Source: Clostridia bacterium
GTDB lineage: Bacteria; Bacillota; Clostridia; Oscillospirales; RGIG5554
Assembly (NCBI GenBank): GCA_017507855.1
Contig: JAFWAE010000026.1
Location: forward strand, 146,991-210,990
DNA: 64,000 bases
Direction: 5' to 3'
Of this stretch, positions 15,397 through 63,220 are shown piece by piece. The notes beneath the pieces are model-generated. The model was not told where the DNA came from. It did no database searches and saw only the letters and a list, made by a program, of their open reading frames with translations. Made by a program: the position numbers and the translations under genes. The first letter of the stretch is position 1; the number at the start of each line of letters is the position of its first letter.

Positions 15397-17565
15397 TCAG
15401 TTTTCCTGTACGGAGGGCTCGGTCTTGTCCCCGATGGTCAGGCGGTTGAAAAGGGTCAGCGCGCCGCTTTGGCGGACGTAGGAGCTGCCGTTCCAGCGCA
15501 TGACGTTCAGGGCTTGTACCTGCCCGCCGTTCATGTTCAGCAGCGGGCCGCCCAGGTTATCTGCCCCCATGCCGATGACGGAAACGCGGCTGTTTTGGGA
15601 AGAGATCAGGGTGTGAGCGCCGTAGGCAAAGGAGTTGGAGATGAGCAGATCCTCCGTATCACAGGCGCGGATATACTCCAGCTGTTGGCGGGTGATGGGA
15701 TCAAACACCAGCTCAAAGACCTTAGCCTCGTCCGGCCAGGGATCGCAAAGGGCGGTCAGCCCGTGGCGCGTGATGACCGTGCCGTTTTGCAGGCAGCCTT
15801 CAATGAGGTTTCCGCATCCGCCGTTGATGGCAAAGGCGTTACGATAGCAGCCCGTGGTCACTTTTTTGATCACGGAATCCGTGCAATCGGCAAAGTCGAT
15901 ACCCAGATAGGCGGCGGCGATGGACAGGTTTTCCGCGCGAAGTCCCTTGCCGCTGCCGCGAATGGCGTAGGTGCAGGGACGGCAGGTGGCATTGAGGGGG
16001 CTGTTTTTGGTGTAGAAGATATGCAGGCCCGATACGGCGGCACGGTCTCCCGCCAACGTAATGAGTGCTTGGCCGGTGAAGGGATCTGCGGCGTCATAGC
16101 CGTAGTCACCCAGCAGGATCGTGCCCAGGCTGGTGCCGCTTTGACCGCGGCCCGCTACACTACCCGCACCCCGCAGCTCTACCCCTGCGGGAATGGTGAT
16201 GGGAGAGGTGAGCAAATAGCGTCCTGCAGGCAGGTACACCAGTCCGCCTCCCTCGCGGCCCGCGCGGTCCAGCAGGGCCTGCAATTGGGCAGAGGCATCC
16301 TCTTGCCCGTTGGCGGGGATCTTATCGGTAAAAAGCACGGCGGAGGTGGAGGGGGTGGGGACGGCTTTCAGCACGAAGGCAGACAGGTCGGTCTTTTCCG
16401 CATTTCGGTCCACCGTGCCGCTGACGGAGCCCGCCAGGGTCACCCCTGCCAGCTTGACGGTGCCGCCGGTGTTGTTGATCAGCGCGGCCTCGCTTCCGGC
16501 CAGAGAGGAGGCGGCGATCAGGGCGCCCCAACGGGTGTCGATGGCGTCGGCGCGGAAGGCCACGTTGCAATCCAGCACGTTCAGGTTGTAGAAGGAACCG
16601 GCAAATTCAATGCGCTTTCCCTTCACCAAATGCACGCCCGTGGCGCATTGGGACACCGAGACATTGGAAAACTGAGTCCATTCCAGGTCTCCCAGGATCA
16701 GGGCGGTGGTATTTTTTCGGGTGTATTGGCGCAAGGCGGTGGCGTCGGAGCAGGCGTAGCCGTAAGCGGCGTCGGCCCAGTAATCGGGGCTGACGGTCAC
16801 GTTGCGCCAGGTGCCCACGTCTGCCTGGTTATAAGCCTCGGCGGCGCAGTACAGGAAGGTTCCTTTGAAATTTTCTACCGTCATCATTTCGTGCACGGGG
16901 GCACCGGATACGCAGGCACCCAGGCCGCGGTAGCCGTTGATGACCGCGCAGTCGATAATGGACTGCAGCATATAGCCGTTTTGGGTGTTGCTGCCCGCCA
17001 CGTAGAAGGTGAAGGGATAGGGCTTAACGTCCCGGATATCCTGCTGAGGATAGTACACCGTAATCCCCCGCACGCCTGCGCTTCCGGCAATGGAGATCAG
17101 GGCGGGGAGGGGGGTGTCACGGCTGGGAGGGGTAGCCAACAGCACCGTGCCGTAGCCGCGGCCCTCGTCGGGGTCGATCCAGTCGCCTGCCAGGGTGACG
17201 AAGGCGGGGATCTTCAACGTGCCGCTGACCAGATACTGGCCTGCGGGCAACCACACCGTACCTCCCATGGGGCAGGAGGCCAGGGCGCGATTAATGGCGG
17301 AGGTGCTGTCCGTTTGGCCGGTGGGGTCGGCGTTGAAGGGGTGGTTGGTGGCCACGACATCCACCACCAACACCTGCGCACCGCACTGCACGGTCATGGG
17401 CGTTTGAAAGGGCTCGTACGTGTAGGTGGGAGGGGCTTGCAGGGTGGTAGGAGGCGCGGGGGTCGTATCGGGTTGGGCCGTTTTCGGGGCCTCCACACAG
17501 GAGACCAAGCCGGGAAGAAGGAGGAAGGAAAGAAGAAGGGAAAGGCATTTGCGCACGTTTTTCAT
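15397..17565 (-). CDS. lipoprotein with two tandem pectate-lyase-3-type beta-helix domains (GH55-like architecture; GH28-related protein)
   Basis: Signal peptide with lipobox (LLLPGLVSC). Two copies of the PF12708-like opening: FNADPTGQTDSTSAINRALASCPMGGTVWLPAGQYLVSGTLKIP and NGQEDASAQLQALLDRAGREGGGLVYLPAGRYLLTSPITIP. Confidence 0.75.
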   Translation of the reverse strand: MKNVRKCLSLLLSFLLLPGLVSCVEAPKTAQPDTTPAPPTTLQAPPTYTYEPFQTPMTVQCGAQVLVVDVVATNHPFNADPTGQTDSTSAINRALASCPMGGTVWLPAGQYLVSGTLKIPAFVTLAGDWIDPDEGRGYGTVLLATPPSRDTPLPALISIAGSAGVRGITVYYPQQDIRDVKPYPFTFYVAGSNTQNGYMLQSIIDCAVINGYRGLGACVSGAPVHEMMTVENFKGTFLYCAAEAYNQADVGTWRNVTVSPDYWADAAYGYACSDATALRQYTRKNTTALILGDLEWTQFSNVSVSQCATGVHLVKGKRIEFAGSFYNLNVLDCNVAFRADAIDTRWGALIAASSLAGSEAALINNTGGTVKLAGVTLAGSVSGTVDRNAEKTDLSAFVLKAVPTPSTSAVLFTDKIPANGQEDASAQLQALLDRAGREGGGLVYLPAGRYLLTSPITIPAGVELRGAGSVAGRGQSGTSLGTILLGDYGYDAADPFTGQALITLAGDRAAVSGLHIFYTKNSPLNATCRPCTYAIRGSGKGLRAENLSIAAAYLGIDFADCTDSVIKKVTTGCYRNAFAINGGCGNLIEGCLQNGTVITRHGLTALCDPWPDEAKVFELVFDPITRQQLEYIRACDTEDLLISNSFAYGAHTLISSQNSRVSVIGMGADNLGGPLLNMNGGQVQALNVMRWNGSSYVRQSGALTLFNRLTIGDKTEPSVQEN

Positions 17566-23462: not shown

Positions 23463-23526
23463 TTTGTATTAGTAAGGAATGCGCATTCTAAAAGTGCGTT
23501 CCGCAAAGAAAGGAAATCGGATCTTT

Positions 23527-26511
23527 ATGAGAAAAACAGGCAAATTTTCCTGCGTGAGCAGAGCGGCCTGCGGCGTGTTGGCTGCGGCCATGGCGCTTTC
23601 GCTGGGAGCTTGCGTAGAACCCGGAGGAAAAGAGGTACTCTACATGAAGGAAACGTATAAAAAACAGCTTCCCGAATTGGTGAGCTTTGAAAAGGCCGAG
23701 GATCTGACGCTGGTAAGCATCAGCGGCGGCGAAGGGGTGCTCAGTGCCGACTACGTGGGCCATGCCTCGCAATCCGCACAGGGGCTGCAACTCAGCGGTA
23801 AGGCGGGCCAGACGGCCACGGTTTCTTTGGACGGCGCCTTGCAGGTGGACGATACCCGCCGTTACGACATCCGCTGGCATGAGCACATGGGCTTTGCGGT
23901 GGATCTGAACAATCCCAACGATTTTGACGTGAAGGTGACTCTTCGTTTGTACGATAGCGAAGCAGGGGAAGGGATGTACGCCACCAAGGAGCTGATCCTG
24001 CGCCCCGGTACGGAGCTGGCCTTTGAATGGATGAATGAGGAGATCACCCGTTTCGACGAGGTGGATCTGACCCATATCGACAAGGTAGAGCTTTCCGCCA
24101 CAGCAGAAAAGGATTTTGTGCTGTACACCGACAACTGGCGTTTGCTGGAGCCCTACGGGGAGAAAAACGTCTATTATTATGATATTCCCGGTGCCAGCAC
24201 CTCTGCCAAGTATAATGAGACGGCAGCCTTTGTGGCGCTGCAGGGTGTTATCAACCGTATGGGGCCCGCCTTGCAGCTGTGGTGCGGCGACAACGGCGGC
24301 ATGGATAACAGCTGGTGGAAGATCATGACCGCCGAGGGATATTGGCTCAATGGCTATAACCGCAAAGAGCTGAAGACCTTTGAGGCGGTGGTGGATAAAT
24401 TTGCCGACCGTATCAGCGGCGTGATCATCTGGGACGAAGCTGTTCCCGCCACCATTAACGTGGCTTCCACGCTGGCCGGTGTATTTAATGCTGTGCCTGT
24501 GGTGTACGGCTCTGCGGAATACGAGCTTCTCGTAACGCAAAAGGGGTACAAGGTGCTCTACGACCTGCGGGGCAAGTTTGACGGCAAAACGGATCCCGCG
24601 CCCGGAGTCAAGACCACCGGAAGCCCCAAGAACGACGCCTATCTGTTTGCCAAATGGCTGGTGCTGGATGCAGGTCTTTGCGATCCGCTGTACTTCGGTG
24701 AGTATCAGGATTCCTACATCATTTCTCCCGACCAGGCGGACAGCCGTTGGTTTGTGGTGGACCGCGACGCCATGACAGCCAAAAAGGGCTTTATGTATGA
24801 CCTGAACTATTGGCCTAATATTTCGGCGGACGACGAGGTCAATTCTCCCGCGGGTGTGGACTACAACACCACCTGCGCTTTGCTGGACAGCGCCTGGGCT
24901 CAACTGCGCGAATCTCATATTATTGAAGTTTTGGGATGTTCCAACTTCTACGGAAAATACACCTCCGTTTACAGCGCTTCCGAAGGTGAGTGGGGTAATA
25001 TTCAGCTGATCACTGAGCATCACGGAATGCTGACGGCGGACGCGGAATGCCGCAACGCCTCCTTCTATTACCATGCCCCTCAAAGCCATCAGCTGGTGCA
25101 GAACGCCCCCTCCGAGCGGGCGGTGAGCTCCTCCTATGAGGAAGGCAAGGTCTACGTGATGATCGAGGGCTTTGACTACGACGGCCTTTGCCAAAACTAC
25201 GGCAACTGGCAGTGGATGGCCGCTGATCGCACGGTGAGCACCCGTCTGATCCCCGTGTCCCTGAGCGCCACGGTCATGGTGTATAAGTATTCGCCTGCCA
25301 TTATGCAGTATTATTACGATACCAAGACCGAAAAGGACTTTATCGTAGGCGGCCCCTCCGGCGTTGGCTACGTGCTTCCCTCTCATATGGACGAGCGCAT
25401 GGTGGAACTGTTTGCCGAGCAGGGCAAGCATTACTACTCCCGCCTTAATTATAAGGTGGCCAATTTCAACATCGACAACCAAATTCCCGACGACAGTATT
25501 CTGGAGGCTTATTCCACCTTTGCCACCGACGGGTACGGGGTGACCAATATCTCCGGGCCGCAGGTGAAGACCAAGCTGGTCAACCGCATGGTGCTCAACG
25601 TGCTGGGCGGAGTTGGCAGCAAGGAGGCCACGGCGGCGGCAAAGGAAATGATGACGCAGATCAAGTATTACAACCCCGGCATGAAGCCCGGAGATACGGT
25701 GTTCTACACGGCCCGCTTTGCCCGTGCGGACATCGGCTTTTACGACGACGTGGCCAAGGCCTGTCAGGAGATCTACGCCGATTACAATTTCGAATTCGTG
25801 GATCCCTATACCTACTATTACTACCTGCGCGAATATTTGGGCGGAGACAACAACCGTCTCTCCTCCGTGACGGATTGGGACGTGGCCGAGCGCGTGTGTG
25901 CCCAAACTACTACGACTGTGACCGCCTCTTTCCGCAACGATGGCCGCGACACCTGGAAAAAGGGCGATGTCTTCGGTCTGTTGCAACTGACGGACAAGGC
26001 AGGCAACGTGGTCGCCGAGCTGAAGAGCAAGCTGAAAAACGACGTCAAGCCCCTGCAGACGGCAGAGCTCTCCTTTGACGTGACCTGGCCCGAAAAGACG
26101 GGGGACTACAACGTCAAGATCCAGATGAGCGACGGAGAGAAGACCTTTGAGGAATATTTCAACGTGGCCTTTGAGACGAAGGTGCGCGTAGCCGAGACAT
26201 GGGATGAGCTTCCCGGCTCCTTCCGTCCGCTGACGCCCACCAATCAAGTTCCTCACGAAGGAAGCACGACCATTACCTTCAAGTGGGAGGAGTCTCAGGG
26301 CGCGCAGAGCTATAAGATCGTGTTGGCCCGGGATAAGAACTTCAAAGAAGTGGTAGAGACGGCCGAGGGCCTGACGGAGGCTACCTATACCACCACGGTG
26401 GCATTGGAGGACGGGTTGCATTTTTGGAAGGTGGAGGCGACGAACGGTGTCGGCTCTGTCGAGGAGATCTTCGGTAGCTTCATGCACCGTAACGAGTCCC
26501 GCGTGAAATAA
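23527..26511 (+). CDS. secreted lipoprotein, GxGYxYP-type putative glycoside hydrolase with C-terminal Ig/FN3-like modules
   Basis: Start is at MRKTGKFSCVSRAACGVLAAAMALSLGAC (signal peptide ending in a lipobox-like LGAC). The internal sequence GGPSGVGYVLP resembles the GxGYxYP family motif. The C-terminal sequence FKWEESQGAQSYKIVLARDKNFKEVVE...WKVEATNG is FN3-like. The track ORF begins upstream at 23479. Confidence 0.75.
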   Translation: MRKTGKFSCVSRAACGVLAAAMALSLGACVEPGGKEVLYMKETYKKQLPELVSFEKAEDLTLVSISGGEGVLSADYVGHASQSAQGLQLSGKAGQTATVSLDGALQVDDTRRYDIRWHEHMGFAVDLNNPNDFDVKVTLRLYDSEAGEGMYATKELILRPGTELAFEWMNEEITRFDEVDLTHIDKVELSATAEKDFVLYTDNWRLLEPYGEKNVYYYDIPGASTSAKYNETAAFVALQGVINRMGPALQLWCGDNGGMDNSWWKIMTAEGYWLNGYNRKELKTFEAVVDKFADRISGVIIWDEAVPATINVASTLAGVFNAVPVVYGSAEYELLVTQKGYKVLYDLRGKFDGKTDPAPGVKTTGSPKNDAYLFAKWLVLDAGLCDPLYFGEYQDSYIISPDQADSRWFVVDRDAMTAKKGFMYDLNYWPNISADDEVNSPAGVDYNTTCALLDSAWAQLRESHIIEVLGCSNFYGKYTSVYSASEGEWGNIQLITEHHGMLTADAECRNASFYYHAPQSHQLVQNAPSERAVSSSYEEGKVYVMIEGFDYDGLCQNYGNWQWMAADRTVSTRLIPVSLSATVMVYKYSPAIMQYYYDTKTEKDFIVGGPSGVGYVLPSHMDERMVELFAEQGKHYYSRLNYKVANFNIDNQIPDDSILEAYSTFATDGYGVTNISGPQVKTKLVNRMVLNVLGGVGSKEATAAAKEMMTQIKYYNPGMKPGDTVFYTARFARADIGFYDDVAKACQEIYADYNFEFVDPYTYYYYLREYLGGDNNRLSSVTDWDVAERVCAQTTTTVTASFRNDGRDTWKKGDVFGLLQLTDKAGNVVAELKSKLKNDVKPLQTAELSFDVTWPEKTGDYNVKIQMSDGEKTFEEYFNVAFETKVRVAETWDELPGSFRPLTPTNQVPHEGSTTITFKWEESQGAQSYKIVLARDKNFKEVVETAEGLTEATYTTTVALEDGLHFWKVEATNGVGSVEEIFGSFMHRNESRVK

Positions 26512-26557: not shown

Positions 26558-26723
26558 GGCGCTAAAGACAGGATAAATTTGCAAAAAACACAGAATTTTT
26601 TTCTTTTTTTTAGGTGTTATTCTTTACAAATGGCATTTTTTTTGGTATTCTTATATGGTTGTAGAGGTAAAAAAGCCTGTATACGCTGAAATTTTGTTAC
26701 ACAAAACAAGGAGTGATTCCAAG

Positions 26724-27917
26724 ATGAGTCGCATGGTCGGTACTGTTTCCAGAGGGATCCGAGCTCCCATTATCCGCAGAGGGGACGACCTGGCTGCCAT
26801 CGTGACCGATTCTGTTTTGGCTGCTGCCGCCGATGACGGGTTTGAGATCCGCGATCGGGATATTGTGGCTATGACGGAGGCTATCGTGGCCCGTGCCCAA
26901 GGCAACTATGCCACGGTGGATGATATTGCCAAGGACGTTCACGCCAAATTCGGCGGCGAAGAGGTGGGTGTCATCTTCCCCATCCTCAGCCGTAACCGCT
27001 TTGCCATTTGCCTGCGCGGCATTGCCAAGGGGGCAAAGAAGGTCGTGCTGATGCTCAGCTATCCCTCCGACGAGGTGGGCAACCATCTGCTGAGCTTGGA
27101 TGCGCTGGACGAAAAGGGGATCGACCCCTATAAGGACGTGCTTGATTTAAAGACCTACCGCGCTCTGTTCGGCTACGAAAAGCATCGCTTTACCGGCGTG
27201 GATTACGTGGAATATTACGAATCCCTGATCCGTGAAAGCGGCGCCGATTGCGAGATCGTGTTTGCCAACGATCCCCGCGCGGTGCTGGCCTATACCAAAA
27301 ACGTGCTGTGCTGTGACATCCACACCCGTGCGCGCACCAAGCGCTTGCTGAAGGCGGCAGGTGCGGCCAAGGTGTTCGGTTTGGACGAGATCCTCACCGC
27401 GCCTGTGGACGGGAGCGGCTATAATGAAAGCTATGGCCTGCTGGGCAGTAACAAGGCCACGGAGGAGCAGGTCAAGCTCTTCCCCCGTGATTGCCAAACG
27501 CTGGTGGAGGATATCCAAGACCGTCTGCTGCAGCGTACGGGCAAGCACGTGGAGGTCATGGTATACGGCGACGGCGCCTTTAAGGATCCCGTGGGAAAGA
27601 TCTGGGAATTGGCCGACCCCGTGGTGGCTCCCGCTTACACCTCCGGGCTGGAGGGGACGCCCAACGAGCTGAAACTGAAATACCTGGCCGATAACGATTT
27701 TGCTCATCTTTCGGGCGATGCGCTGAAGGAAGCCATTAAAGAGCAGATCCACAAGAAGGATGGGGATCTGGTGGGCAATATGGCCTCCGAAGGCACCACG
27801 CCTCGCCGCCTGACCGACCTGATCGGTTCCCTTTGCGATCTGACCTCCGGCTCCGGCGACAAAGGCACCCCCATCGTATATATTCAAGGCTATTTTGACA
27901 ACTACACCGCTGAATAA
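26724..27917 (+). CDS. CofE-like protein (F420-0:gamma-glutamyl ligase family, PF01996-type), standalone
   Basis: MSRMVGTVSRGIRAPIIRRGDDLAAIVTDSVL...IRDRDIVAMTEAIVARAQGNY fits the CofE N-terminal pattern (P.I..GDDL....I.DGD.L..T.KIVSKAEG). AAGGAG lies upstream of ATG 26724. About 397 aa, longer than canonical CofE. Confidence 0.7.
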   Translation: MSRMVGTVSRGIRAPIIRRGDDLAAIVTDSVLAAAADDGFEIRDRDIVAMTEAIVARAQGNYATVDDIAKDVHAKFGGEEVGVIFPILSRNRFAICLRGIAKGAKKVVLMLSYPSDEVGNHLLSLDALDEKGIDPYKDVLDLKTYRALFGYEKHRFTGVDYVEYYESLIRESGADCEIVFANDPRAVLAYTKNVLCCDIHTRARTKRLLKAAGAAKVFGLDEILTAPVDGSGYNESYGLLGSNKATEEQVKLFPRDCQTLVEDIQDRLLQRTGKHVEVMVYGDGAFKDPVGKIWELADPVVAPAYTSGLEGTPNELKLKYLADNDFAHLSGDALKEAIKEQIHKKDGDLVGNMASEGTTPRRLTDLIGSLCDLTSGSGDKGTPIVYIQGYFDNYTAE

Positions 27918-27932
27918 AACGCCTGCTCCAAG

Positions 27933-27960
27933 CACCCGTCAAAAGACGGGTGTTTTTTTC
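27933..27960 (+). terminator. rho-independent terminator
   Basis: CACCCGTC-AAAA-GACGGGTG followed by a long T run. Confidence 0.85.
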
Positions 27961-27980
27961 TTTTTTTTTCGCTTTTTATC

Positions 27981-28009
27981 TTGCCAAACGGGCAATTTTT
28001 CTGTACAAT
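27981..28009 (+). promoter_or_regulatory. candidate sigma-A promoter for hisH-hisF and downstream genes
   Basis: TTGCCA, 17-nt spacer, TACAAT. Confidence 0.55.
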
Positions 28010-28031
28010 GTGAGGCAAAGGAAGTGTGTAC

Positions 28032-28637
28032 ATGATCGCAATTGTGGATTACGGTGCGGGAAATTTGGCCAACGTCAGCCGCGCCTTGGAATTTTTGGGT
28101 GCACAGGCCGTGGTGACCTCTGACGCGGGGGTCATTCGCGAGGCTGAGCGGGTGCTTTTGCCCGGGGTGGGCGCTTTCGGAGACGCCATGGAGAGCTTGC
28201 GCCGTAAGGGCCTGGAGCAGGTGCTTTGCCAAGCAGCGGAAGAAAAACCGTTTTTGGGAATCTGTTTGGGCCTTCAGCTGCTGTTTGAGGAATCGGAGGA
28301 AAGCCCCGGGGTCAGCGGTCTGGGCGTGCTGAAGGGATCGGTGCGTCGCTTCCGTTTGGAAGGGCTAAAGGTGCCTCACATGGGCTGGAATACCCTGCAG
28401 GTCTTGCAAAAGGAAGGGGTCTTTGCCCATTTGGAGGAACAGAAAAGCGTGTATTTCGTGCATTCCTACTACGTTTGTCCCGAGGAGCCCGTGGCAGCCA
28501 CTCGGACCGAATACGGCATTCCCTTCGTCTCTGCGGTGCAGAAGGGGCAGTTGGCGGCCATGCAGTTTCACCCCGAAAAAAGCGGTACGGTGGGGCTGGG
28601 CCTGCTGAAGGCTTTTATTGACGGAAGGGAGGCATAA
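28032..28637 (+). CDS. hisH: imidazole glycerol phosphate synthase, glutamine amidotransferase subunit
   Basis: MIAIVDYGAGNLANVSRALEFLG...LLPGVGAFGDAM...FLGICLGLQLL...MGWN...FVHSY...MQFHPEKS. ATG 28032 follows AAGGAAG. Confidence 0.92.
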   Translation: MIAIVDYGAGNLANVSRALEFLGAQAVVTSDAGVIREAERVLLPGVGAFGDAMESLRRKGLEQVLCQAAEEKPFLGICLGLQLLFEESEESPGVSGLGVLKGSVRRFRLEGLKVPHMGWNTLQVLQKEGVFAHLEEQKSVYFVHSYYVCPEEPVAATRTEYGIPFVSAVQKGQLAAMQFHPEKSGTVGLGLLKAFIDGREA

Positions 28638-28640
28638 CGG

Positions 28641-29402
28641 ATGCTGGCTAAGAGAATCATTCCCTGCCTGGATATTGACCACGGCCGCGTAGTTAAGGGT
28701 GTGCGCTTTGTGAACATCCGCGATGCGGGCGACCCTGTGGAAGTGGCGGCCATGTACGACCGCGCCGGGGCGGACGAGCTGGTGTTTCTGGATATTACCG
28801 CCTCCTCCGAAAGCCGCAGTATTGCCCTGCAAACGGTGGAAGCCGTGGCCAAGCAGGTGTTTTTGCCCCTGACGGTGGGCGGTGGTGTGCGCACGGTGGA
28901 GGATTTTCGCATGCTGTTGCGCGCGGGTGCGGACAAAGTATCCGTGAATTCTTCGGCGGTGAAGAACCCCCAGTTAATCGCTGATGCGGCGAAGATCTTC
29001 GGCAGTCAGTGCGTGGTGGTAGCCATTGACGCCAAGCGCCGTGCCGACGGTACGGGCAGTGAGGTGTACCTCAACGGCGGCCGTGTGGCCACGGGGATCG
29101 ACGCGGTGGAATGGGCCAAGCAGGCCGAACGTCTGGGCGCGGGCGAAATTTTGCTGACCTCCATGGATACCGACGGGGAAAAGAAGGGCTACGACCTTCC
29201 CTTGACCCGTGCGGTAGGGGAAGCGGTGGGCATTCCCGTGATCGCCTCGGGCGGGGCGGGAAGCATGGAGGATTTTGCCCAAGTGCTCACCCACGGAAAG
29301 GCCGATGCGGCTTTGGCGGCCAGCCTGTTCCATTACAAAGAAATGGAGATCGGGGACCTGAAGCGCTATTTGCACGAGCAGGGGATCCCCGTGCGACTGT
29401 AA
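28641..29402 (+). CDS. hisF: imidazole glycerol phosphate synthase, cyclase subunit
   Basis: [23 protein letters not shown]...GDPVE.A..Y...[13 protein letters not shown]...TVGGGVR...GADKVSVNS...VVVAIDAK...[11 protein letters not shown]...PVIASGGAG. Confidence 0.95.
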
Positions 29403-29472
29403 GCCTGTTTAACGAAGAAAAAAGCGGCTGTGGGCCGCCATATATAAAAAACGACCTGAAGGAGGCATTTTC

Positions 29473-30873
29473 ATGGACATTAAACCCCGTATCGGGCGCT
29501 ACACGGTGTACGCCAGCGACTATCTGAAGCAAGACAGCGATGTGATGCTGGGCGGCGGCACGGACGAGACCGAGCTGCTGCAAGCCATTTTGGACAAGGC
29601 CGAGGAATGGGGCGGCCTGGTTTTGGAGGTGGACGGCGCCATCCTCATGCGGGGCATGCGCCTGCATTCCAACACCACCATTCATTGTGCCAATCAAAAC
29701 TGCGGCTTTTATTTGGCCGACGACACCAACGACGCCATCGTGCAGAACGCCCATTTGGACTACGACGTGATCCGCGACGAGAACATCCAACTGCTGGGCG
29801 GTACGTATAACATCAACTGCGAGCACCAGCAACGCAGCAAGGAGCCTCTGCCTCCGGGGGACGGAAAATACGGCAAGGAACAAAGCCGCTTTGAGGGAGC
29901 CCATTATTTGCACGGCCTGCGCTTTATCGGCGTGCGGGGACTGACTTTGCGGGATATGCGTACCGTGGACCAGCGCGTATGGGATGCGGTGTTCTGTAAC
30001 TGGGAGCATATCGTCATCGAGAATTTTGCCGTGGAGCTGCCTCATAATTACGTGGCGCAGAACCAGGACGGCCTCCATTTTTGGGGCCCCGGGCGCGACC
30101 TGTTTATCCACAACATCCGCGGTGGCTCAGGGGACGATTTCATTGCCCTGGCGCCCGACGAGCACGACCGCTGCTCCGACATTACCGACGTGCTTATTGA
30201 CGGCGTGTATTTGGAAAATGCGGATCAGGGCATCCGTATGCTGTCCCGCGGGCCGGGTAAGCTGGACCGCGTGACCGTGCGCAACGTGTACGGCACCTAT
30301 AAAAGCTGTGGCTTTTTCATCAACCCTTGGTTCGGCAAATGGTGCGATGACAGCGACGGCAATTACGGTGCCATTACCGTAGAAAATGTGCAGTTGCGCC
30401 AGACCTACCATAAGTACAAAGACTATTGCCGCCCCTTCCTGTTCCGTATCGGCGGGCGTATTCAAAGCCTGACGCTGAAGAACATTCAGGCCATCGAGCC
30501 CAACGATGCCCGCGAGCTGGTAGACATCAGCCATATTTACAGCGGTGACGCTGTAAAGGACAATTTCGTGGACATTGCCAACCTGACGGTGGACGGGCTG
30601 GAGGTCCTCAACCGCGAGGGGACGACGGACCCTGTGGATTACATTGCCGTGGACAGCAAGGTGGACCATTTGACGGTGCGCAACGTGCTGATCAACCGTG
30701 ACGGAAACCCTGCGGCGGATACGGTGGTGCACGTCAAGCCCGGGGCCAAGGTGGGCACGCTGGATCTGTCCGGCGTACAGGCCTACGGCATTGAGGCGGG
30801 TGTGAAAAACGAGGGCGATGTGAGCGTGTTGCGCCGCCACTGTGTCTACGTGAACGATCAGGAAGAAAAATAA
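29473..30873 (+). CDS. signal-less right-handed beta-helix protein, GH28-like (paralogue 1 of 3)
   Basis: 466 aa with no signal peptide. N-terminal pectate-lyase-3-like opening (GGGTDETELLQAILDKAEEWGGLVLEVDGAILM). Acidic motifs AQNQDGLHFWG and GGSGDDFIALAP resemble the GH28 NTD / G-DD motifs. ADQGIRMLS resembles RIK. GGAGG RBS is present. Confidence 0.75.
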   Translation: MDIKPRIGRYTVYASDYLKQDSDVMLGGGTDETELLQAILDKAEEWGGLVLEVDGAILMRGMRLHSNTTIHCANQNCGFYLADDTNDAIVQNAHLDYDVIRDENIQLLGGTYNINCEHQQRSKEPLPPGDGKYGKEQSRFEGAHYLHGLRFIGVRGLTLRDMRTVDQRVWDAVFCNWEHIVIENFAVELPHNYVAQNQDGLHFWGPGRDLFIHNIRGGSGDDFIALAPDEHDRCSDITDVLIDGVYLENADQGIRMLSRGPGKLDRVTVRNVYGTYKSCGFFINPWFGKWCDDSDGNYGAITVENVQLRQTYHKYKDYCRPFLFRIGGRIQSLTLKNIQAIEPNDARELVDISHIYSGDAVKDNFVDIANLTVDGLEVLNREGTTDPVDYIAVDSKVDHLTVRNVLINRDGNPAADTVVHVKPGAKVGTLDLSGVQAYGIEAGVKNEGDVSVLRRHCVYVNDQEEK

Positions 30874-30886
30874 GGGAGGCATTTCA

Positions 30887-32275
30887 ATGGAGATCAAACC
30901 CCGTATCGGGCGCTACACGGTGTACGCCTGCGACTACCTGAAGCAGGACAGCGATGTCATGAAGGGTGGCGGCACGGATGAGACCGAGCTGTTGCAGGCC
31001 ATTTTGGACAAGGCTGAGGAATGGGGAGGCTTGACCTTGGAGGTGGACGGCGCCATTTTGACTCGCGGCATGGCCATTCATTCCAACACCACCATCCATT
31101 GCGCCAACCAAAATTGCGGTTTCTTTTTGAAGGACGGCGCGGCCCAGCCTTTGGCACGAAACGCGCATTTAAGTTATTTGAACATCCACGACGAAAATAT
31201 TTCTCTGCTTGGCGGCACGTATAACCTGAACAGCCCCGGGCAAGATCGTGCCGAAGTGCCCGTGATCCCCACGGAAGGAGAGGAAAACCTTTTGTCCGCT
31301 TGGCTGATGGGTATTAAGTTTTTGGGTGTGCGCGGCCTGACCATGCGGGATATGCGCCTGGTCAACCAACGCACCTTTGCGGGTCTTTTTGCCAACTGGG
31401 AGCATATCGTCATCGAAAACTTTGCCATTGATCTGCTCGACGAACGGGACGCCCAAAACCAGGACGGCCTCCATTTCTGGGGCCCCGGGCGTGACCTGTC
31501 CATTCGCAATATCCGCGGAGGATCGGGGGACGACTTCATGGCCCTGGCGCCCGACGAGCACGATTTCAAGTCCGACATTACGGATGTACTCATCGACGGA
31601 GTATATTTGGAAAATGCCGACCAAGGGATCCGCATGCTGTCCCGTGGGCCGGGCAAGCTGGACCGCGTGACCGTGCGCAACGTGTACGGCACTTACAAGA
31701 GCTGTGGCTTTTTCATCAATCCCGCCTTCGGTAAGGGTCTGGGAGATTGCGAGGGCAATTATGGCTCTATTACCCTGGAAAACATTCAACTGCGCCAAAC
31801 CTACCATAAATACGCCCAGCACGCCCACGCCTTTTTGTTCCGCATCGGCGGCCGCATGCAAAGCCTGACGCTGAAAAACATTCAGGCCATCGAGCCCAAC
31901 GATGCCCGCCCGCTGGTGGATATCAGCCATATCTACGGCCATTGGAGCCGCACGGGAAGCTGTGTGGACATTGCCAACCTGACGGTGGACGGCTTGGAGA
32001 TCCTCAACCGCGAGGGCACCGTTGATCCTGCCGATTACATTTCCGTGGACGGCAAGGTGGACCATTTGACGGTGCGTAATGTGCTGGTCAACCGCGATGG
32101 CCATCCTGCCGCCGACCGCTTGGTGGCAGTGAAGGAGGCAGGTCAGGTGAAGAGCCTGATGATCTCTCAGGTGCAGGCTATGGGGATCGATAGCGTACTG
32201 GATTTGCAGGGCGGTACGGTGGAGCATGTGTACGCCGACCATGTGTTTTTGAATGACTTGGAGGTGTTGGGATGA
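30887..32275 (+). CDS. signal-less beta-helix protein, GH28-like (paralogue 2 of 3)
   Basis: 462 aa, colinear with paralogue 1. It shares a 33-nt identical stretch at the 5' end and a 38-nt identical stretch mid-gene with paralogue 1. The RBS context GGAGGCATTT is duplicated too. Confidence 0.75.
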   Translation: MEIKPRIGRYTVYACDYLKQDSDVMKGGGTDETELLQAILDKAEEWGGLTLEVDGAILTRGMAIHSNTTIHCANQNCGFFLKDGAAQPLARNAHLSYLNIHDENISLLGGTYNLNSPGQDRAEVPVIPTEGEENLLSAWLMGIKFLGVRGLTMRDMRLVNQRTFAGLFANWEHIVIENFAIDLLDERDAQNQDGLHFWGPGRDLSIRNIRGGSGDDFMALAPDEHDFKSDITDVLIDGVYLENADQGIRMLSRGPGKLDRVTVRNVYGTYKSCGFFINPAFGKGLGDCEGNYGSITLENIQLRQTYHKYAQHAHAFLFRIGGRMQSLTLKNIQAIEPNDARPLVDISHIYGHWSRTGSCVDIANLTVDGLEILNREGTVDPADYISVDGKVDHLTVRNVLVNRDGHPAADRLVAVKEAGQVKSLMISQVQAMGIDSVLDLQGGTVEHVYADHVFLNDLEVLG

Positions 32276-33636
32276 AATCCATTCTTCCTTCCTGCGGACG
32301 CTTTACCGTCCGCGCAAGCGATTACCTGAAGCAAGACAGCGACGTGATGCTGGGCGGCGGCACGGATGAGACCGAGCTGCTGCAGGCCATTCTGGACAAG
32401 GCACTTGAATGGGGAGGCCTTCATCTGATCGTGGACGGCGCCGTGCTGGTGCGCGGGCTGACCCTGCATTCCAACACCACCGTTGAATGCACCGATCAAA
32501 GCTGCGGCTTCTTTTTGAAGGACGGCGCGGCCAAGCCCTTGGTGAGCAACGCCAAGCTGAGTTATTCCCACATTCATACGGAAAACATTCGCCTGCTGGG
32601 AGGAACCTACAACCTCAACAGCCCCGGGCAGGAGAGAATGGAGAACGATCCCCCCGTCATCGAAGGGGATACGGACAAGCCCTTCAACTGGCTCATGGGC
32701 GTAAAATTCATCGGCGTGCGAAATCTGACTATGCGGGATATGCGTTTGGTCAACCAACGCACCTTCGCGGGTCTTTTTGCCAACTGGGAGCACGTGGTGG
32801 TGGAGAATTTCGCCATTGATCTGCCCGACAACCGCTTTGCCCAAAATCAGGACGGCCTTCATTTCTGGGGTCCCGGACGTGACCTTTGTATTCGCAATAT
32901 CCGAGGTGGCTCGGGGGACGATTTCATGGCCCTGGCTCCCGATGAGCACGATCTCAAGTCCGACATTACGGATGTGGTTATAGACGGGGTGTATTTGGAA
33001 GATGCGGATCAGGGGATCCGTATGCTCTCCCGCGGGCCGGGGCGGCTGGATCGCGTATTTATTCGCAACGTGTACGGCACTTACAAGAGCTGTGGCTTTT
33101 TCATCAATCCTTGGTTCGGTAAGGGCTACGGCGACAGCAAAGGCAATTACGGTGCCATTACCGTGGAAAATGTGAATCTGCAGCAGACCTACGATAAATA
33201 CGGCGATTTTTGCGATGCTTTTCTTTTCCGCATCGGCGGACGTATTCAAAGCTTAACGCTGAAGAACATTCAAACGGTGGATCCCAACGATGCCAGACCT
33301 TTGGTGGACGTCAGTCATGTGTACGGGAGCCGCATTCTGTCCGGCAACTTTACTCATGTGTCCAACCTGACAATAGACGGGCTGGAGGTGGTCAACCATC
33401 GCGGTACCAAAAAGAAGAACGCCTATATCAAGGTGGACACCCGCGTGGATAATCTGGTGGTGCGTAACGTGACCGTGGACCGAAGCGGGAATGAAAATGA
33501 CGATACCCTCATCCGCTTGACGGAGGAAGCACAGGTAGATGCTTTGACTGTGCGGGGTGTGCTGACCCGAGGAATTGGCAAAACGTTGGAGGGAAAGGCC
33601 AATCACACTCTTATTGAAGGGGAACTAAAGCTCTGA
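32272..33636 (+). CDS. signal-less beta-helix protein, GH28-like (paralogue 3 of 3)
   Basis: 454 aa. ATGA overlap with paralogue 2. Same conserved blocks, and a 47-nt stretch identical to paralogue 2 (CGCAACGTGTACGGCACTTACAAGAGCTGTGGCTTTTTCATCAATCC). Confidence 0.75.
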   Translation: MKSILPSCGRFTVRASDYLKQDSDVMLGGGTDETELLQAILDKALEWGGLHLIVDGAVLVRGLTLHSNTTVECTDQSCGFFLKDGAAKPLVSNAKLSYSHIHTENIRLLGGTYNLNSPGQERMENDPPVIEGDTDKPFNWLMGVKFIGVRNLTMRDMRLVNQRTFAGLFANWEHVVVENFAIDLPDNRFAQNQDGLHFWGPGRDLCIRNIRGGSGDDFMALAPDEHDLKSDITDVVIDGVYLEDADQGIRMLSRGPGRLDRVFIRNVYGTYKSCGFFINPWFGKGYGDSKGNYGAITVENVNLQQTYDKYGDFCDAFLFRIGGRIQSLTLKNIQTVDPNDARPLVDVSHVYGSRILSGNFTHVSNLTIDGLEVVNHRGTKKKNAYIKVDTRVDNLVVRNVTVDRSGNENDDTLIRLTEEAQVDALTVRGVLTRGIGKTLEGKANHTLIEGELKL

Positions 33637-33640
33637 ACAG

Positions 33641-33680
33641 ACACCCGACGAAAGATTTTGCTTTCGTCGGGTGTTTTTTG
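33641..33680 (+). terminator. strong rho-independent terminator ending the hisHF/beta-helix unit
   Basis: ACACCCGACGAAAG-loop-CTTTCGTCGGGTGT (14 bp) followed by TTTTT. Confidence 0.85.
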
Positions 33681-33773
33681 TGGACGACGGGGCTTGTTTT
33701 TTGCCTTGACATTTGGTATAATAATCAAATACAATAGGTAAAATCTTTTTTCGCAAGAAAACGAGGGATGGTT

Positions 33774-35699
33774 ATGATGAACGAAAAGCCCAAATATTAT
33801 TTGACCACAGCCATTGCTTACGCCTCCAGGGTGCCTCATATCGGCAACACCTACGAGGCCGTGCTGGCCGATGCCATTGCCCGCTATAAGCGCGCGGAGG
33901 GATATGATGTCTTTTTCCTGACCGGCACGGATGAGCACGGGCAGAAGATCCAGGAGCAGGCCGAGCAGGACGGAAGGACTCCCCAGGCCCACGTGGATGA
34001 GATCGCCGGTGAGATCCGCCGCATCTGGGATATGATGAACGTCAGCTATGACCGCTTTATCCGCACCACGGACGAGGATCACGTGGCCATCATGCAAAAG
34101 GCGTTTAAAAAGCTCTACGAGCAGGGGGATATTTACAAATCCGCCTACGAGGGCAAATATTGCGTGGCTTGCGAATCCTTCTATACGGAAAGCCAGCTGG
34201 TCAACGGCAAATGCCCCGATTGCGGCCGGGACGTGCGTGAGGCCAGGGAGGAGGCCTATTTCTTCCGTTTGAGCAAGTACGCGTCCGCTTTGGAGGCTCA
34301 TATTGAAAGCCATCCGGAGTTTATTCAGCCCGAAAGCCGCAAAAACGAGATGCTCAACAACTTCATCCGTCCCGGTCTGCAGGATTTCTGCGTGTCCCGC
34401 ACCTCCTTTACTTGGGGCGTGCCCGTGGACTTTGATCCCGGCCACGTGGTGTACGTTTGGGTGGATGCCCTGTTTAATTACGTGACGGCATTGGGATACG
34501 ATCCTTATGCAAGCAGCGAACTGTTTGACAAATACTGGCCTGCGGATGTGCATCTGATCGGCAAGGATATTCTGCGCTTCCACACCATTTACTGGCCCGC
34601 TATGCTCATGGCCTTGAACGTACCCCTGCCCAAGCAGGTGTTCGGACATCCTTGGTTGCTTTCCAACGGGGATAAGATGTCCAAATCCAAGGGAAACGTC
34701 ATTTACGCCGAGGAGCTGGTACAGCGCTTTGGAGTGGATGCCACTCGCTACTACTGCCTCCACGAGATGCCCTTTGCTCAGGACGGTACGCTGACCTACG
34801 AGCTGCTTATCTCCCGCATCAATACGGATCTGGCCAATATTTTGGGCAATCTGGTGAAACGTTCCGTTTCCATGGCTCAGAAATATTTCGGCGGCATCGT
34901 GCCTCAGCCCAATGAGGAGCAGGATCCCGACGAAGAACTGAAGGCCCTGGCCGCGCAGACGCCCGCCGCAGTAAAGCGTTGCATGGACGGCCTGCACGTA
35001 GCCGACGCGCTGGACGAGATCTGGACACTGCTGCGCCGAAGCAATAAATATATTGACGAGACCATGCCTTGGGTGCTTGCCAAGGACGAGGCAACCATGC
35101 CCCGTTTGCAAACGGTCATCTACAATCTGCTGGAGAGCCTGCGTATCGCCGCTTCTTTGTTGGCCCCCTTCCTGCCCGAAACAGCCGCCCGCATTTTTGC
35201 CCAGCTGAACGTTCAGGCCGAGGAAGGTCTGCCTGCGGGCGAATTCGGCCTTTTGGTGCCGGGTACCGTGCTGGGAGAGGCCGAGACCCTGTTCGAGCGC
35301 ATTGACGAGGCCAAGGCCTTGGCGGAGATCGAGGCGGCCCACGAGCCTGCCAAGCCCGTCATCCCCAAGCCCGAGATGAAAGAGATCACCATCGACGATT
35401 TTGCCGCCGTGGAATTGCGCGCGGGCAAGATCCTTTCCTGCGAAAAGCTGGCAAAGAGCCGCAAGCTGCTGAAAATGAAGGTGGATCTGGGCTTTGAGGA
35501 AAGGCAGATCCTTTCCGGAATCGCCCCCTACTATCAGCCCGAGGAATTGGTGGGCAAGACCGTGGCCGTAGTGGCCAATTTGGCTCCCGCTACCCTTTGC
35601 GGCGAGCGTAGTGAAGGAATGATCCTGGCTTCGGGAGAAGAAAATCCCCGCGTGCTGTTTTTGGATGCCGCTGTCAATCCCGGCGACAAGATCCGCTGA
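33774..35699 (+). CDS. metG: methionine--tRNA ligase with C-terminal tRNA-binding (EMAP/Trbp111-like) domain
   Basis: KPKYYLTTAIAYASRVPHIGNTYE (HIGH-type), zinc knuckles CVACE...CPDCG, KMSKSKGN, and C-terminal DFAAVELRAGKI...K.DLG. Start is ambiguous among in-frame ATGs at 33768, 33774 and 33777. 33774 or 33777 fit the GAGGG RBS best. Confidence 0.93.
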   Translation: MMNEKPKYYLTTAIAYASRVPHIGNTYEAVLADAIARYKRAEGYDVFFLTGTDEHGQKIQEQAEQDGRTPQAHVDEIAGEIRRIWDMMNVSYDRFIRTTDEDHVAIMQKAFKKLYEQGDIYKSAYEGKYCVACESFYTESQLVNGKCPDCGRDVREAREEAYFFRLSKYASALEAHIESHPEFIQPESRKNEMLNNFIRPGLQDFCVSRTSFTWGVPVDFDPGHVVYVWVDALFNYVTALGYDPYASSELFDKYWPADVHLIGKDILRFHTIYWPAMLMALNVPLPKQVFGHPWLLSNGDKMSKSKGNVIYAEELVQRFGVDATRYYCLHEMPFAQDGTLTYELLISRINTDLANILGNLVKRSVSMAQKYFGGIVPQPNEEQDPDEELKALAAQTPAAVKRCMDGLHVADALDEIWTLLRRSNKYIDETMPWVLAKDEATMPRLQTVIYNLLESLRIAASLLAPFLPETAARIFAQLNVQAEEGLPAGEFGLLVPGTVLGEAETLFERIDEAKALAEIEAAHEPAKPVIPKPEMKEITIDDFAAVELRAGKILSCEKLAKSRKLLKMKVDLGFEERQILSGIAPYYQPEELVGKTVAVVANLAPATLCGERSEGMILASGEENPRVLFLDAAVNPGDKIR

Positions 35700-55600: not shown

Positions 55601-55690
55601 ATACTGTACCGATAAAGGGGAATGGTGTGAGTGTTTCCCTTTGAAAAAATCGGGTGTTTTGAACTTCTTTGTAAAACGGAGGAAAACCGC

Positions 55691-58597: not shown

Positions 58598-58627
58598 TTT
58601 TACTGAAGACGAGGGAGATGAAATTAT

Positions 58628-59572
58628 ATGGCTAAAGAACCCGTCAATGCGGTCAAAGAGCGCGCGGATTGGACCAAGCGCGATTGGCGCCGCTATGAAA
58701 TGAAAAAGAACAAGGTTGCCTATCTTTTCGTGGCTCCGTATATGATCCTCTTTACGGTGTTTACGGTGGCACCCGTTGTACTGTCCTTCTTGCTCAGCTT
58801 TACCTCATTTAACATGCTTGAGTGGCCCAAAATGGTGTGGCTGGACAACTACCTGCGCCTGTTCCTGGCAGACGATATCTTCTTGACGTCTGTGAAGAAC
58901 ACATTCCTCTTCGCGGTGATCACAGGCCCTGCTTCCTACCTGCTGTGCCTGTTCTTCGCCTGGTTTATCAACGAATTGACCCCCAAGATCCGTTCCTTCG
59001 TGACGTTGATCTTTTACGCACCTGCCATTGCCGGTAACGTGTACCTGATCTGGGGTATCCTCTTCTCGGGCGACTCCTACGGTTACGTCAACGGTTGGCT
59101 GCTGAAAATGGGCCTCATTTCCGAGCCCATCCTGTTCTTCCAGAACGTTAACTACATTTTCCCGCTGATCATCATGGTGGCCCTGTGGACCTCCCTGGGT
59201 ACCTCCTTCCTGACCTTTATCGCCGGTTTCCAGAACGTGGACCGTACGTATTACGAGGCCGGTGCGGTGGACGGCGTGAAAAACCGTTGGCAGGAGCTGT
59301 GGTTCGTGACCCTTCCTTTGATGAAAAACCAGATGCTGTTGAGCGCCGTGCTGGCTATCACCGGTGCTTTCGGCTTCGGCGCCATTATCGACGCCATGGT
59401 TGGGTTCCCGTCTCCTGACTACTGCGTACACACCATGGTACACCATCTGAATGACTACGGTAACCTGCGTATGGAGCTGGGCTATGCCTCCGCCATCGCC
59501 ACGCTGCTGTTCCTGATGATGATCGGCTCCAACTTCCTGGTGCGCAATCTGCTGAAGAGGGTGGGTAAGTAA
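58628..59572 (+). CDS. carbohydrate ABC transporter permease (MalF/CUT1-like)
   Basis: 314 aa, six hydrophobic segments. EAA-loop-like sequence YEAGAVDGVKNRWQELWFVTLPLM. Confidence 0.9.
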   Translation: MAKEPVNAVKERADWTKRDWRRYEMKKNKVAYLFVAPYMILFTVFTVAPVVLSFLLSFTSFNMLEWPKMVWLDNYLRLFLADDIFLTSVKNTFLFAVITGPASYLLCLFFAWFINELTPKIRSFVTLIFYAPAIAGNVYLIWGILFSGDSYGYVNGWLLKMGLISEPILFFQNVNYIFPLIIMVALWTSLGTSFLTFIAGFQNVDRTYYEAGAVDGVKNRWQELWFVTLPLMKNQMLLSAVLAITGAFGFGAIIDAMVGFPSPDYCVHTMVHHLNDYGNLRMELGYASAIATLLFLMMIGSNFLVRNLLKRVGK

Positions 59573-59573
59573 C

Positions 59574-60443
59574 ATGAAAAAATTTAAGATCAAAAAGATG
59601 CGCGCGCTGAACCGTTCTTACGGCGGCGACGTGGGCATCAACGTTTTCCTTCTCATCGTCGGCGCATTCATGGCCTTGCCCTTCGTATACGCCATCTGCA
59701 GTGCTTTGAAGCCCTTGGACGAGTTGTGGTATTTCCCGCCTCGCTTCTTCGTGGAAAACCCCACGCTGAAAAACTTTACCGAGCTGTTCCGCTTGATGTC
59801 CACCTCTTGGGTGCCCTTCTCCCGTTACATCTTCAACACGGTGTTCATCTCCGTGGTAGGTACGGGCGGTCACGTGCTGGTGGCTTCGCTGGCAGCTTAC
59901 GCCCTTTCCAAAATGAAGTTCCCCGGCCGCAACTTTATGTTTAAGGCTGTGGAATACTCCCTGATGTACAACGCGGTGGCTGCCGGTATCGCCATTTTCA
60001 TCATCCTGTCCGCTTTGGGCTGGATCGATACCTACCTGGCCATCATCATCCCCACCTTGGCCGGTTCTTTGGGTCTGTTCCTGATGAAGCAGTTTATGGA
60101 CTCCAACGTACCCGACCAGATCCTGGAAGCCGCTCATATCGACGGCGCAGGCGAATTCCGCATTTGGTGGCAGATCGCCATGCCCCTGGTAAAGCCCGCT
60201 TGGCTGACGCTGATCATCCTGATGTTCCAAAGCCTGTGGCAGACCGGTGCTTCCATCTACATCCAAAGCGAAGAGCTGAAGACCTTCTCCTATGCCATCA
60301 GCCAGGTATTGGCCGGCGGTATCGTGCGTACGGGTGCTGCTTCCGCTTCCACAGTGATCATGATGAGCGTGCCGATCCTGGTGTTCGTGCTGTCTCAGTC
60401 CAACGTTATTGAGACCATGGCCACTTCCGGCATGAAAGATTAA
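59574..60443 (+). CDS. carbohydrate ABC transporter permease (MalG/CUT1-like)
   Basis: 289 aa. EAA-loop sequence LEAAHIDGAGEFRIWWQIAMPLVKPA. Confidence 0.9.
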   Translation: MKKFKIKKMRALNRSYGGDVGINVFLLIVGAFMALPFVYAICSALKPLDELWYFPPRFFVENPTLKNFTELFRLMSTSWVPFSRYIFNTVFISVVGTGGHVLVASLAAYALSKMKFPGRNFMFKAVEYSLMYNAVAAGIAIFIILSALGWIDTYLAIIIPTLAGSLGLFLMKQFMDSNVPDQILEAAHIDGAGEFRIWWQIAMPLVKPAWLTLIILMFQSLWQTGASIYIQSEELKTFSYAISQVLAGGIVRTGAASASTVIMMSVPILVFVLSQSNVIETMATSGMKD

Positions 60444-60459
60444 GGGGGAAATGAGAAAA

Positions 60460-63198: not shown

Positions 63199-63220
63199 CA
63201 GAGGAAAGGAGATGAATCTG

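Follow-up and report, generated by a model that had tools for sequence, protein, structure and literature searches.

A tandem array of three GH28-like beta-helix genes in a Clostridia bacterium, old in origin and remodeled by recombination between lineages

Three consecutive genes encode paralogous beta-helix proteins

We analyzed a 64,000-nt stretch of contig JAFWAE010000026.1 from a Clostridia bacterium (assembly GCA_017507855.1), referred to here as the window, in which positions 29473 to 33636 hold three paralogous genes for beta-helix proteins resembling glycoside hydrolase family 28 (GH28). The original prediction for this locus, made from the letters alone, described three consecutive genes on the same strand whose products of 466, 462, and 454 amino acids align from end to end, and this description proved accurate. 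We refer to the genes and their products as copies 1 to 3 (c1 to c3). The array and its borders comprise the following features.

29403-29472, + strand: spacer between hisF and c1, 70 nt
29461-29465, + strand: GGAGG ribosome-binding site of c1, 7 nt 5' of the ATG
29473-30873, + strand: c1, 466 aa, GH28-like beta-helix protein without a signal peptide (open reading frame list); catalytic-motif residues N197-Q198-D199, D221-D222, and R255
30875-30879, + strand: GGAGG ribosome-binding site of c2, within the 13-nt c1-c2 spacer
30887-32275, + strand: c2, 462 aa (open reading frame list, AlphaFold2 [AF2] model); catalytic-motif residues N191-Q192-D193 (31457-31465), D215-D216 (31529-31534), Q246, and R249 (31631-31633)
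32260-32264, + strand: GGAGG ribosome-binding site of c3, within the 3' end of c2
32272-33636, + strand: c3, 454 aa, whose start codon overlaps the c2 stop (ATGA); motif residues N192-Q193-D194, D216-D217, and R250
33639-33682, + strand: intrinsic terminator 3' of c3, a 16- to 17-bp stem followed by a U run
33706-33735: metG promoter-like site TTGACA-18-TACAAT, downstream of the array terminator (promoter scan)

The ribosome-binding-site context GGAGGCATTT was read upstream of both c1 and c2, as had been claimed. Because the three genes are translationally coupled and share a single strong terminator (predicted fold of -26.7 kcal/mol, z = -7.0), they probably form one co-transcribed expression unit. 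A matching terminator and promoter trail the c3-like gene of a relative (L094, described below). Our scan of the hisF-c1 spacer found no + strand terminator or promoter-like site, so the array may be read through from hisH-hisF (28026-29402); the fold of this spacer was indistinguishable from that of shuffled sequences (z = -0.57). Horizontal transfer of the array was considered and rejected, as its composition shows no anomaly and its GC content matches that of its surroundings.

The copies are GH28 derived and keep the catalytic aspartates

The AF2 model of c2 (pLDDT 91.4, pTM 0.92) is a right-handed beta-helix of all-beta coils, and its best Foldseek matches in the PDB were the GH28 exo-polygalacturonases 2uvf, 3jur, and 5olp (E values of 6e-8 to 2e-7). 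In sequence searches of the PDB, a profile of the three paralogues returned only spurious matches to ribosomal protein L22, and a deeper family profile was required. A 36-sequence profile found the plant polygalacturonase ADPG2 at 8e-6, while a diverse 39-sequence profile found eight GH28 sequences with E values from 1.5e-14 to 1.4e-5 (8ikx/7b7a at 1.5e-14 and 7b8b at 4e-13, followed by 3jur, 7e56, 2uve, 5olp, and 1k5c) and no non-GH28 family below 1e-3. The Pfam model of GH28, PF00295, was matched by 29 of 36 aligned clade members at E ≤ 0.01 (best, 2.5e-10), and some of these relatives would pass its threshold, which the window proteins do not. Many proteins with 45 to 50% identity carry precomputed PF00295 matches, and some relatives in this range are named "glycosyl hydrolase family 28 protein" by NCBI. 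PF12708, a hidden Markov model that had been put forward alongside GH28, matched none of the three copies and only 3 of the 36 relatives, weakly (best, 3.8e-5).

Known members of GH28 (PF00295) include Arabidopsis PGLR and ADPG2 (7b7a, 8ikx, 7b8b) and the exo-polygalacturonases of Thermotoga (3jur) and Yersinia (2uve/2uvf). In GH28, the Asp of an NTD motif and a DD pair supply the general acid and the water-activating bases, the His of a GHG motif supports the catalytic acid, and an RIK motif binds the galacturonate carboxylate. The clade to which c1 to c3 belong shares with GH28 the right-handed parallel beta-helix, an N-terminal cap bearing a GGGTD-type motif, a spacing of 22 residues between the NxD and GDD catalytic coils, the Arg of the RIK motif with an N-x-x-G coil after it, and significant profile-to-sequence similarity across ~170 to 200 residues. 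Profile alignment to solved GH28 structures bore out the motif reading of the original prediction: NQDGLH corresponds to NTDGIH, GDDF to GDDC, and QGIRxLS to NGVRIKS, with the NQD and GDD motifs of all three copies aligned to 7b8b, 8ikx, and 7b7a. The GHG motif is indeed missing, as had also been noted. In plant enzymes it sits on a coil of ~23 residues that is an insertion relative to the clade; in its stead, the following coil of the clade carries an invariant DQG.

Across 119 homologues, N191, Q192, D193, H196, D215, and D216 (c2 numbering) are invariant, as are E224, D226, D233, D237, Q246, D259, R260, N265, and Y309. R249 is present in 116 of the 119, Leu stands in place of the RIK Lys in 118, and position 271 on the next coil is K or R in 114; this last residue might compensate for the RIK Lys. 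The clade is thus unlike GH28 in having no GHG coil, in the Lys-to-Leu replacement, and in its own invariants (PDExD, D233, D237, DQG, and LDR). It differs further in that the window proteins score under the Pfam cut-off, most members are cytoplasmic, and the gene context is not pectin specific. Although c1 to c3 fall short of the Pfam threshold and have no GHG motif, they are clearly derived from GH28 and have kept its catalytic aspartates. Taken together, the AF2 fold, the PDB profile matches, and the aligned catalytic motifs support a GH28-like beta-helix. The concern that aligned acidic residues might be lacking is answered by catalytic Asp residues that both align and are invariant.

Other beta-helix carbohydrate enzymes resemble the clade in overall fold, namely AlgE mannuronan C5-epimerases (2pyg), GH87 alpha-1,3-glucanases (6k0v, 5zru), and phage tailspike endoglycosidases (HK620, 2x85), with Foldseek E values of 1e-6 to 1e-4 and TM-scores up to 0.6. 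These proteins show no sequence-level similarity in profile searches, however, and their catalytic residues differ from the conserved set of the clade.

None of c1 to c3 has a hydrophobic N terminus, in agreement with the predicted absence of a signal peptide. Among the 120 best homologues, only 5 passed an N-terminal hydropathy cut-off (maximum 10-residue hydropathy ≥ 2.3); further homologues of 520 to 550 aa appear Sec/TAT-like from reading their N termini. The contrast originally drawn with a beta-helix protein encoded at 15397-17565 (- strand) also stood, as a lipoprotein signal (...LLLPGLVSC) is present there. That 722-aa PF12708 protein carries the lipoprotein signal MKNVRKCLSLLLSFLLLPGLVSC and has only the N-terminal cap motif in common with the array clade (hhalign probability, 18%).

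The tandem duplication is old

In full-length alignments, protein identity is 71% for c1/c2, 68% for c2/c3, and 64% for c1/c3, and overall nucleotide identity among the copies is 67 to 72%. All ten peptide blocks quoted in the original prediction are present in the three copies at equivalent positions. The quoted identical runs are likewise exact: 33 nt (29482/30896) and 38 nt (30259/31655, with the sequence as given) between c1 and c2, and 47 nt (31676/33064) between c2 and c3, the last being the longest shared run in the array. What did not survive was the proposal that the duplication is recent. Synonymous divergence (dS) among the copies is 0.98 to 1.23 by the Nei-Gojobori method, near saturation, with ratios of nonsynonymous to synonymous divergence (dN/dS) of 0.22 to 0.30. 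Moreover, every copy has its own counterpart in another assembly (P0004 for c1, a 94% identical protein; a 100% protein match for c2; and P0014/L094 for c3, 96% identical), so the triplication predates those lineage splits. The tandem duplication is therefore old, and all three copies are under purifying selection.

Divergence is concentrated where it had been predicted to be. Nonsynonymous differences per site (pN) reach 0.4 to 0.5 in alignment columns 101 to 160 and 0.3 to 0.55 in the last ~100 codons, with a minimum of 0.00 to 0.12 in columns 201 to 300, and dN/dS is lowest across the catalytic coils. The C-terminal 120 aa of c3 are the most divergent, with 38 to 42% identity to c1 and c2. 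Divergence in the loop at residues ~115 to 140 and in the C-terminal 100 to 120 residues suggests that the copies may have different specificities or partners. The diverging segments had been taken to contact the substrate and may do so; the C-terminal portion of the helix forms the largest of them and is distant in sequence from the catalytic coils.

Recombination has remodeled the array between lineages

We compared the identical runs with two null models. When synonymous codons were redrawn from local codon usage, the 95% limit for an identical run was 26 to 27 nt. The observed runs exceed this saturated-codon null mainly because synonymous sites are not fully saturated (same-codon fraction of 0.62 to 0.64 versus 0.47 expected). 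When the observed codon pairs were kept and their positions permuted, which preserves synonymous identity, the longest c1/c2 run (38 nt) was unremarkable (P = 0.085), while the count of c1/c2 runs of ≥20 nt (P = 0.002) and the 47-nt c2/c3 run (P = 0.007) pointed to some clustering. The long identical tracts of the original prediction thus exist, but they are only marginal against the second null and lie in genes that are otherwise well diverged. In 90-nt windows, c1 and c2 are 90% identical over their first ~90 nt, after which identity drops. Gene conversion, which had been raised as a possibility, is clear in tandem pairs of relatives but weak within the array itself; the evidence for exchange within c1 to c3 is real but weak.

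One such pair lies downstream of an arginine-biosynthesis operon (L001, 8625-11374) and encodes proteins 63 to 71% identical to the window copies. In their first ~630 nt, its two genes are 94 to 98% identical in DNA and share unbroken runs of up to 116 nt; beyond that point, identity is 57 to 75%. The ~630-nt segment is a recent gene-conversion tract. In a further pair (L095/P0005), identity is 91% in the N-terminal and middle parts and 55% in the C-terminal part. Trees of separate segments conflict with one another. The N-terminal and middle parts cluster copies by genome (100% bootstrap support for the L001 pair), with c2 and c3 grouped at 91% in the middle-segment tree, while in the tree of the C-terminal 120 residues c2 groups with the upstream L001 copy (L001_up) and one L095 copy (L095_b), so that orthology across genomes is kept. 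This disagreement is the pattern predicted by concerted evolution.

Two independent assemblies contain relatives of window positions 29473-33780 (L093, 1-1811, and L094, 1-2495; 82 to 87% nucleotide identity). Here the order is c2'-c1'-c3'-terminator-metG, as opposed to c1-c2-c3 in the window, and the c1'-c3' junction is backed by both assemblies. The first ~100 nt of c1' are c3-like, giving the gene a mosaic 5' end, and the junction types track the position in the array and not the gene body. An in-frame stop interrupts c3' at codon 140; the gene could be a pseudogene, or the stop a sequencing error. The array has been remodeled between lineages by unequal recombination; the differing copy order, the mosaic 5' ends, and the conversion tracts in relatives uphold the earlier description of it as recombination prone.

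Concerted evolution of a tandem array is a textbook phenomenon, and the ~630-nt L001 tract, the within-genome clustering of N-terminal and middle segments, and the shifting copy order all resemble it. Unlike a typical case, the window copies are old and well separated (dS of ~1) and bear only slight traces of exchange. Arrays of this clade have been reshaped repeatedly by gene conversion at the 5' (N-terminal) end together with unequal recombination, and the array offers a clean, small case in which concerted evolution reaches only the 5' halves of tandemly repeated enzyme genes. Two scans of JGI metagenome contigs for closer relatives returned none, and a 17-nt probe common to c1 to c3 was not found in any fetched locus.

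The clade is widespread among metagenome-assembled genomes

A word-indexed search returned more than 790 family matches. A profile run against 1.84 billion cluster representatives (protein clusters at 50% identity) matched 2326 clusters at E ≤ 1e-3, of which 1202 reached ≤ 1e-10 and 338 reached ≤ 1e-30. A scan of one genome per species gave 176 loci, of which the best 80 (L009 to L088) all come from metagenome-assembled genomes (MAGs), with no cultured isolate among them. The sources are gut and rumen Clostridia (Oscillospiraceae, Ruminococcaceae, Acutalibacteraceae, and Lachnospiraceae), Armatimonadota, Bacteroidales/Prolixibacteraceae, and Planctomycetota. The nearest match in the genome scan, at 69% identity, was from a sheep-omasum Clostridia MAG, and in several Clostridia MAGs copies lie on two or more contigs. 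Of 89 loci, 5 have tandem copies, and the triple is confined to this window; loci with tandem copies include L001, L047, L076, and L095. At L095 (2-3785), at least two tandem family copies precede a lipoprotein whose beta-helix cap is of the GDG type, on a contig of 3.8 kb. The short contigs of the close relatives suggest that such arrays break short-read assemblies.

Neighboring genes in other loci point to glycan catabolism and recur at low frequency

Elsewhere, family members neighbor an ABC importer with a large solute-binding protein (SBP), LacI and AraC regulators, and genes for GH92, GH88, PL11-like, GH127, GH20, GxGYxYP, and DUF6259 proteins. A cassette encoding an SBP of ~950 aa, two permeases, and an NHL/Yip1 membrane protein lies directly downstream of a family member in L006/L007/L024, L037, and L091; a DUF5696 gene completes it in L006/L007/L024 and L091, and the fetched L037 locus ends at the NHL/Yip1 gene. 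The window has a cassette of this kind at 55631-64000, 38 to 61% identical to the L006 and L091 versions, with the following five genes.

within 55631-64000: solute-binding protein, 988 aa
58628-59572 and 59574-60443: ABC permeases
60451-63198: NHL/Yip1-like membrane protein, 915 aa
~63581 onward: start of a DUF5696-like open reading frame

Two unannotated proteins beside the L091 family member were considered as hidden paralogues and rejected (hhalign probability < 1%).

A URO-D-like gene (PF01208, ~335 to 365 aa) is the direct neighbor of the family gene in 11 of the 94 loci, some of them redundant; these are Armatimonadota and Eubacteriales MAGs (L002/L016, L017, L036/L089, L046, L048, L050, L061, L062, and L090). 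GxGYxYP proteins, which adjoin family members in L003, L015, and L026, are still only a putative hydrolase family in the literature (PMC4071793). A Prolixibacteraceae polysaccharide utilization locus (PUL) contains two GH92 genes, a PL11-like/FGE fusion, GH88, two PF12708 proteins, and DUF4838, and Firmicute loci contain GH20 and NagA-like genes. The immediate surroundings of the array, and most of the 94 loci, showed no pectin-pathway genes (pectate lyase, CE8/CE12 esterases, and uxa/kdu). An argument for the substrate from a conserved operon was rejected, since partners are too rare across these loci. Literature searches on DUF5696 and DUF6259 found no papers.

A probable role as cytoplasmic glycoside hydrolases

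We favor the reading, at a probability of about 0.65, that c1 to c3 are cytoplasmic and probably inverting glycoside hydrolases of an uncharacterized clade, either a remote branch of GH28 or its sister. The catalytic center would be formed by the Asp of NQD and the DD pair, as in GH28 and presumably with inversion, with the clade's own invariants E224, D226, D233, D237, Q246, D259, and R260 taking the place of the GHG coil and the RIK Lys. That loss, together with the clade-specific invariants, speaks against plain homogalacturonan as the substrate, which is probably an imported oligosaccharide and not plain pectin. GH28 rhamnogalacturonases also depart from GHG and RIK and retain the acidic catalytic cluster, so that losing these motifs is compatible with hydrolysis of a non-homogalacturonan substrate; rhamnogalacturonases were not among the PDB profile matches. 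Because they have no export signal, c1 to c3 are predicted to act in the cytoplasm, where they would trim oligosaccharides taken up by an ABC importer. The copies would stem from the old tandem duplication and have been retained by purifying selection.

Several observations weigh against this reading. In the Pfam scan, c2 matched PF00295 with only 16.3 bits, below the cut-off of 22.9, and c1 and c3 did not match it; NCBIfam gave only noise-level matches to a PglB model (13 to 16 bits versus a cut-off of 600). With the GHG coil and the RIK Lys missing, GH28 precedent by itself is not enough to assume activity. Foldseek gave modest TM-scores (0.43 to 0.52) to GH28 structures, and AlgE epimerases, the PfbA adhesin, and tailspikes, which are not hydrolases, score as well, as does GH87. 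Searches of the PDB and the literature turned up no characterized clade member, and the literature searches on GH28 and clan GH-N gave no description of the clade. Finally, the adjacent genes in the window are housekeeping genes (hisH, hisF, metG, tatD, and pyruvate kinase), and no partner is conserved in more than ~10 to 12% of the 94 loci.

More tentatively, the clade could be a separate GH28-derived family acting in the cytoplasm on a non-pectic glycan delivered by an importer, with the copies as specificity variants that have been partly homogenized. Its substrate would enter through the giant-SBP ABC transporter, with the NHL/Yip1 protein and DUF5696 in the same cassette; the enzyme's partners in other lineages would be URO-D-like or GxGYxYP proteins.

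The closeness to polygalacturonases could also mean that c1 to c3 are ordinary GH28 enzymes, that is, intracellular exo-polygalacturonases or rhamnogalacturonan hydrolases that finish imported pectic oligosaccharides, with copies for different linkages. All significant PDB sequence matches are polygalacturonases, and the top fold matches are exo-polygalacturonases, including Thermotoga 3jur, which we take to be cytoplasmic. The conserved RIK Arg and basic residue 271, the PL11-like and GH88 genes of Prolixibacteraceae loci, and the absence of GHG and RIK from rhamnogalacturonases would fit as well. Such an identity nevertheless seems rather unlikely given the Leu in place of the RIK Lys, the missing GHG coil, and the dearth of pectin-pathway genes near the array and its relatives. 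The same PULs hold GH92 mannosidase-family genes, and the Firmicute loci hold GH20 and NagA-like genes; the 2326 clusters at E ≤ 1e-3 would also seem too few to include the bulk of canonical GH28. We likewise think it unlikely that the clade descends from GH28 but has abandoned hydrolysis, to become a lyase or epimerase, a protein that serves as a scaffold or binds carbohydrate, or an enzyme whose cytoplasmic substrate is not a glycan. A cytoplasmic location among housekeeping genes, one canonical motif missing and a second altered, AlgE epimerases and PfbA among the fold matches at similar scores, and invariant residues without a GH28 counterpart (E224, D226, D233, D237, D259, and R260) would all be accommodated. 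The three catalytic Asp residues and the flanking N, G, and H, however, are invariant in 119 homologues from four phyla, which is hard to explain without GH28-type catalysis; in addition, the recurring neighbors are glycan catabolic, and the dN/dS minimum falls over the catalytic coils.

That the triplication is an assembly artifact, through repeats that were collapsed or expanded or through a chimeric join, is very improbable. Close relatives do lie only on very short contigs (1.8 to 3.8 kb), as is typical of repeat-broken assemblies, and the copy order differs between the window and L093 and L094. Yet copies that differ by ~30% in DNA and share no run above 47 nt would not be confused by assemblers, and the exact match to c2 and the 94 to 96% matches to c1 and c3 come from independent assemblies. 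The junction types (a 13- to 14-nt spacer, the ATGA overlap, and the terminator with the metG promoter) recur in L093 and L094, and other loci hold tandem copies too. The array is thus genuine, contrary to the caution voiced in the original prediction. An origin as remnants of phage tailspike or depolymerase genes has the least to recommend it and is scarcely credible. It would draw on weak PHROG tail-spike matches of c1 and c2 (phrog_2234, E = 0.001 to 0.004), confined to the N-terminal cap, and on the HK620 tailspike having the top TM-score (0.6). Those matches are near noise over ~100 residues, no phage genes flank the array, the GC content is like that of the surroundings, and every PDB relative found at sequence level is a cellular GH28 enzyme.

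If the favored cytoplasmic hydrolases act on a non-pectin glycan, they would represent a new specificity or a new CAZy family among beta-helix hydrolases. No fewer than 1200 protein clusters (50% identity, E ≤ 1e-10) would then have a role, and the giant-SBP importer and the DUF5696, DUF6259, GxGYxYP, and URO-D-like neighbors would gain a testable partner. The value of the finding lies in a large GH28-like clade, uncultured only among the best 80 loci, with recurrent unexplained partners; it is a lead for the discovery of carbohydrate-active enzymes and does not overturn current understanding.

Other genes upstream of the array

In the window, the + strand at 26655-29402 encodes an F420-0:gamma-glutamyl ligase-like protein (PF01996, 420 aa) followed by hisH and hisF, near which no further histidine-biosynthesis genes were seen. 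Farther upstream, at 23479-26511 (+ strand), lies a gene for a 1010-aa protein with GxGYxYP putative glycoside-hydrolase domains.

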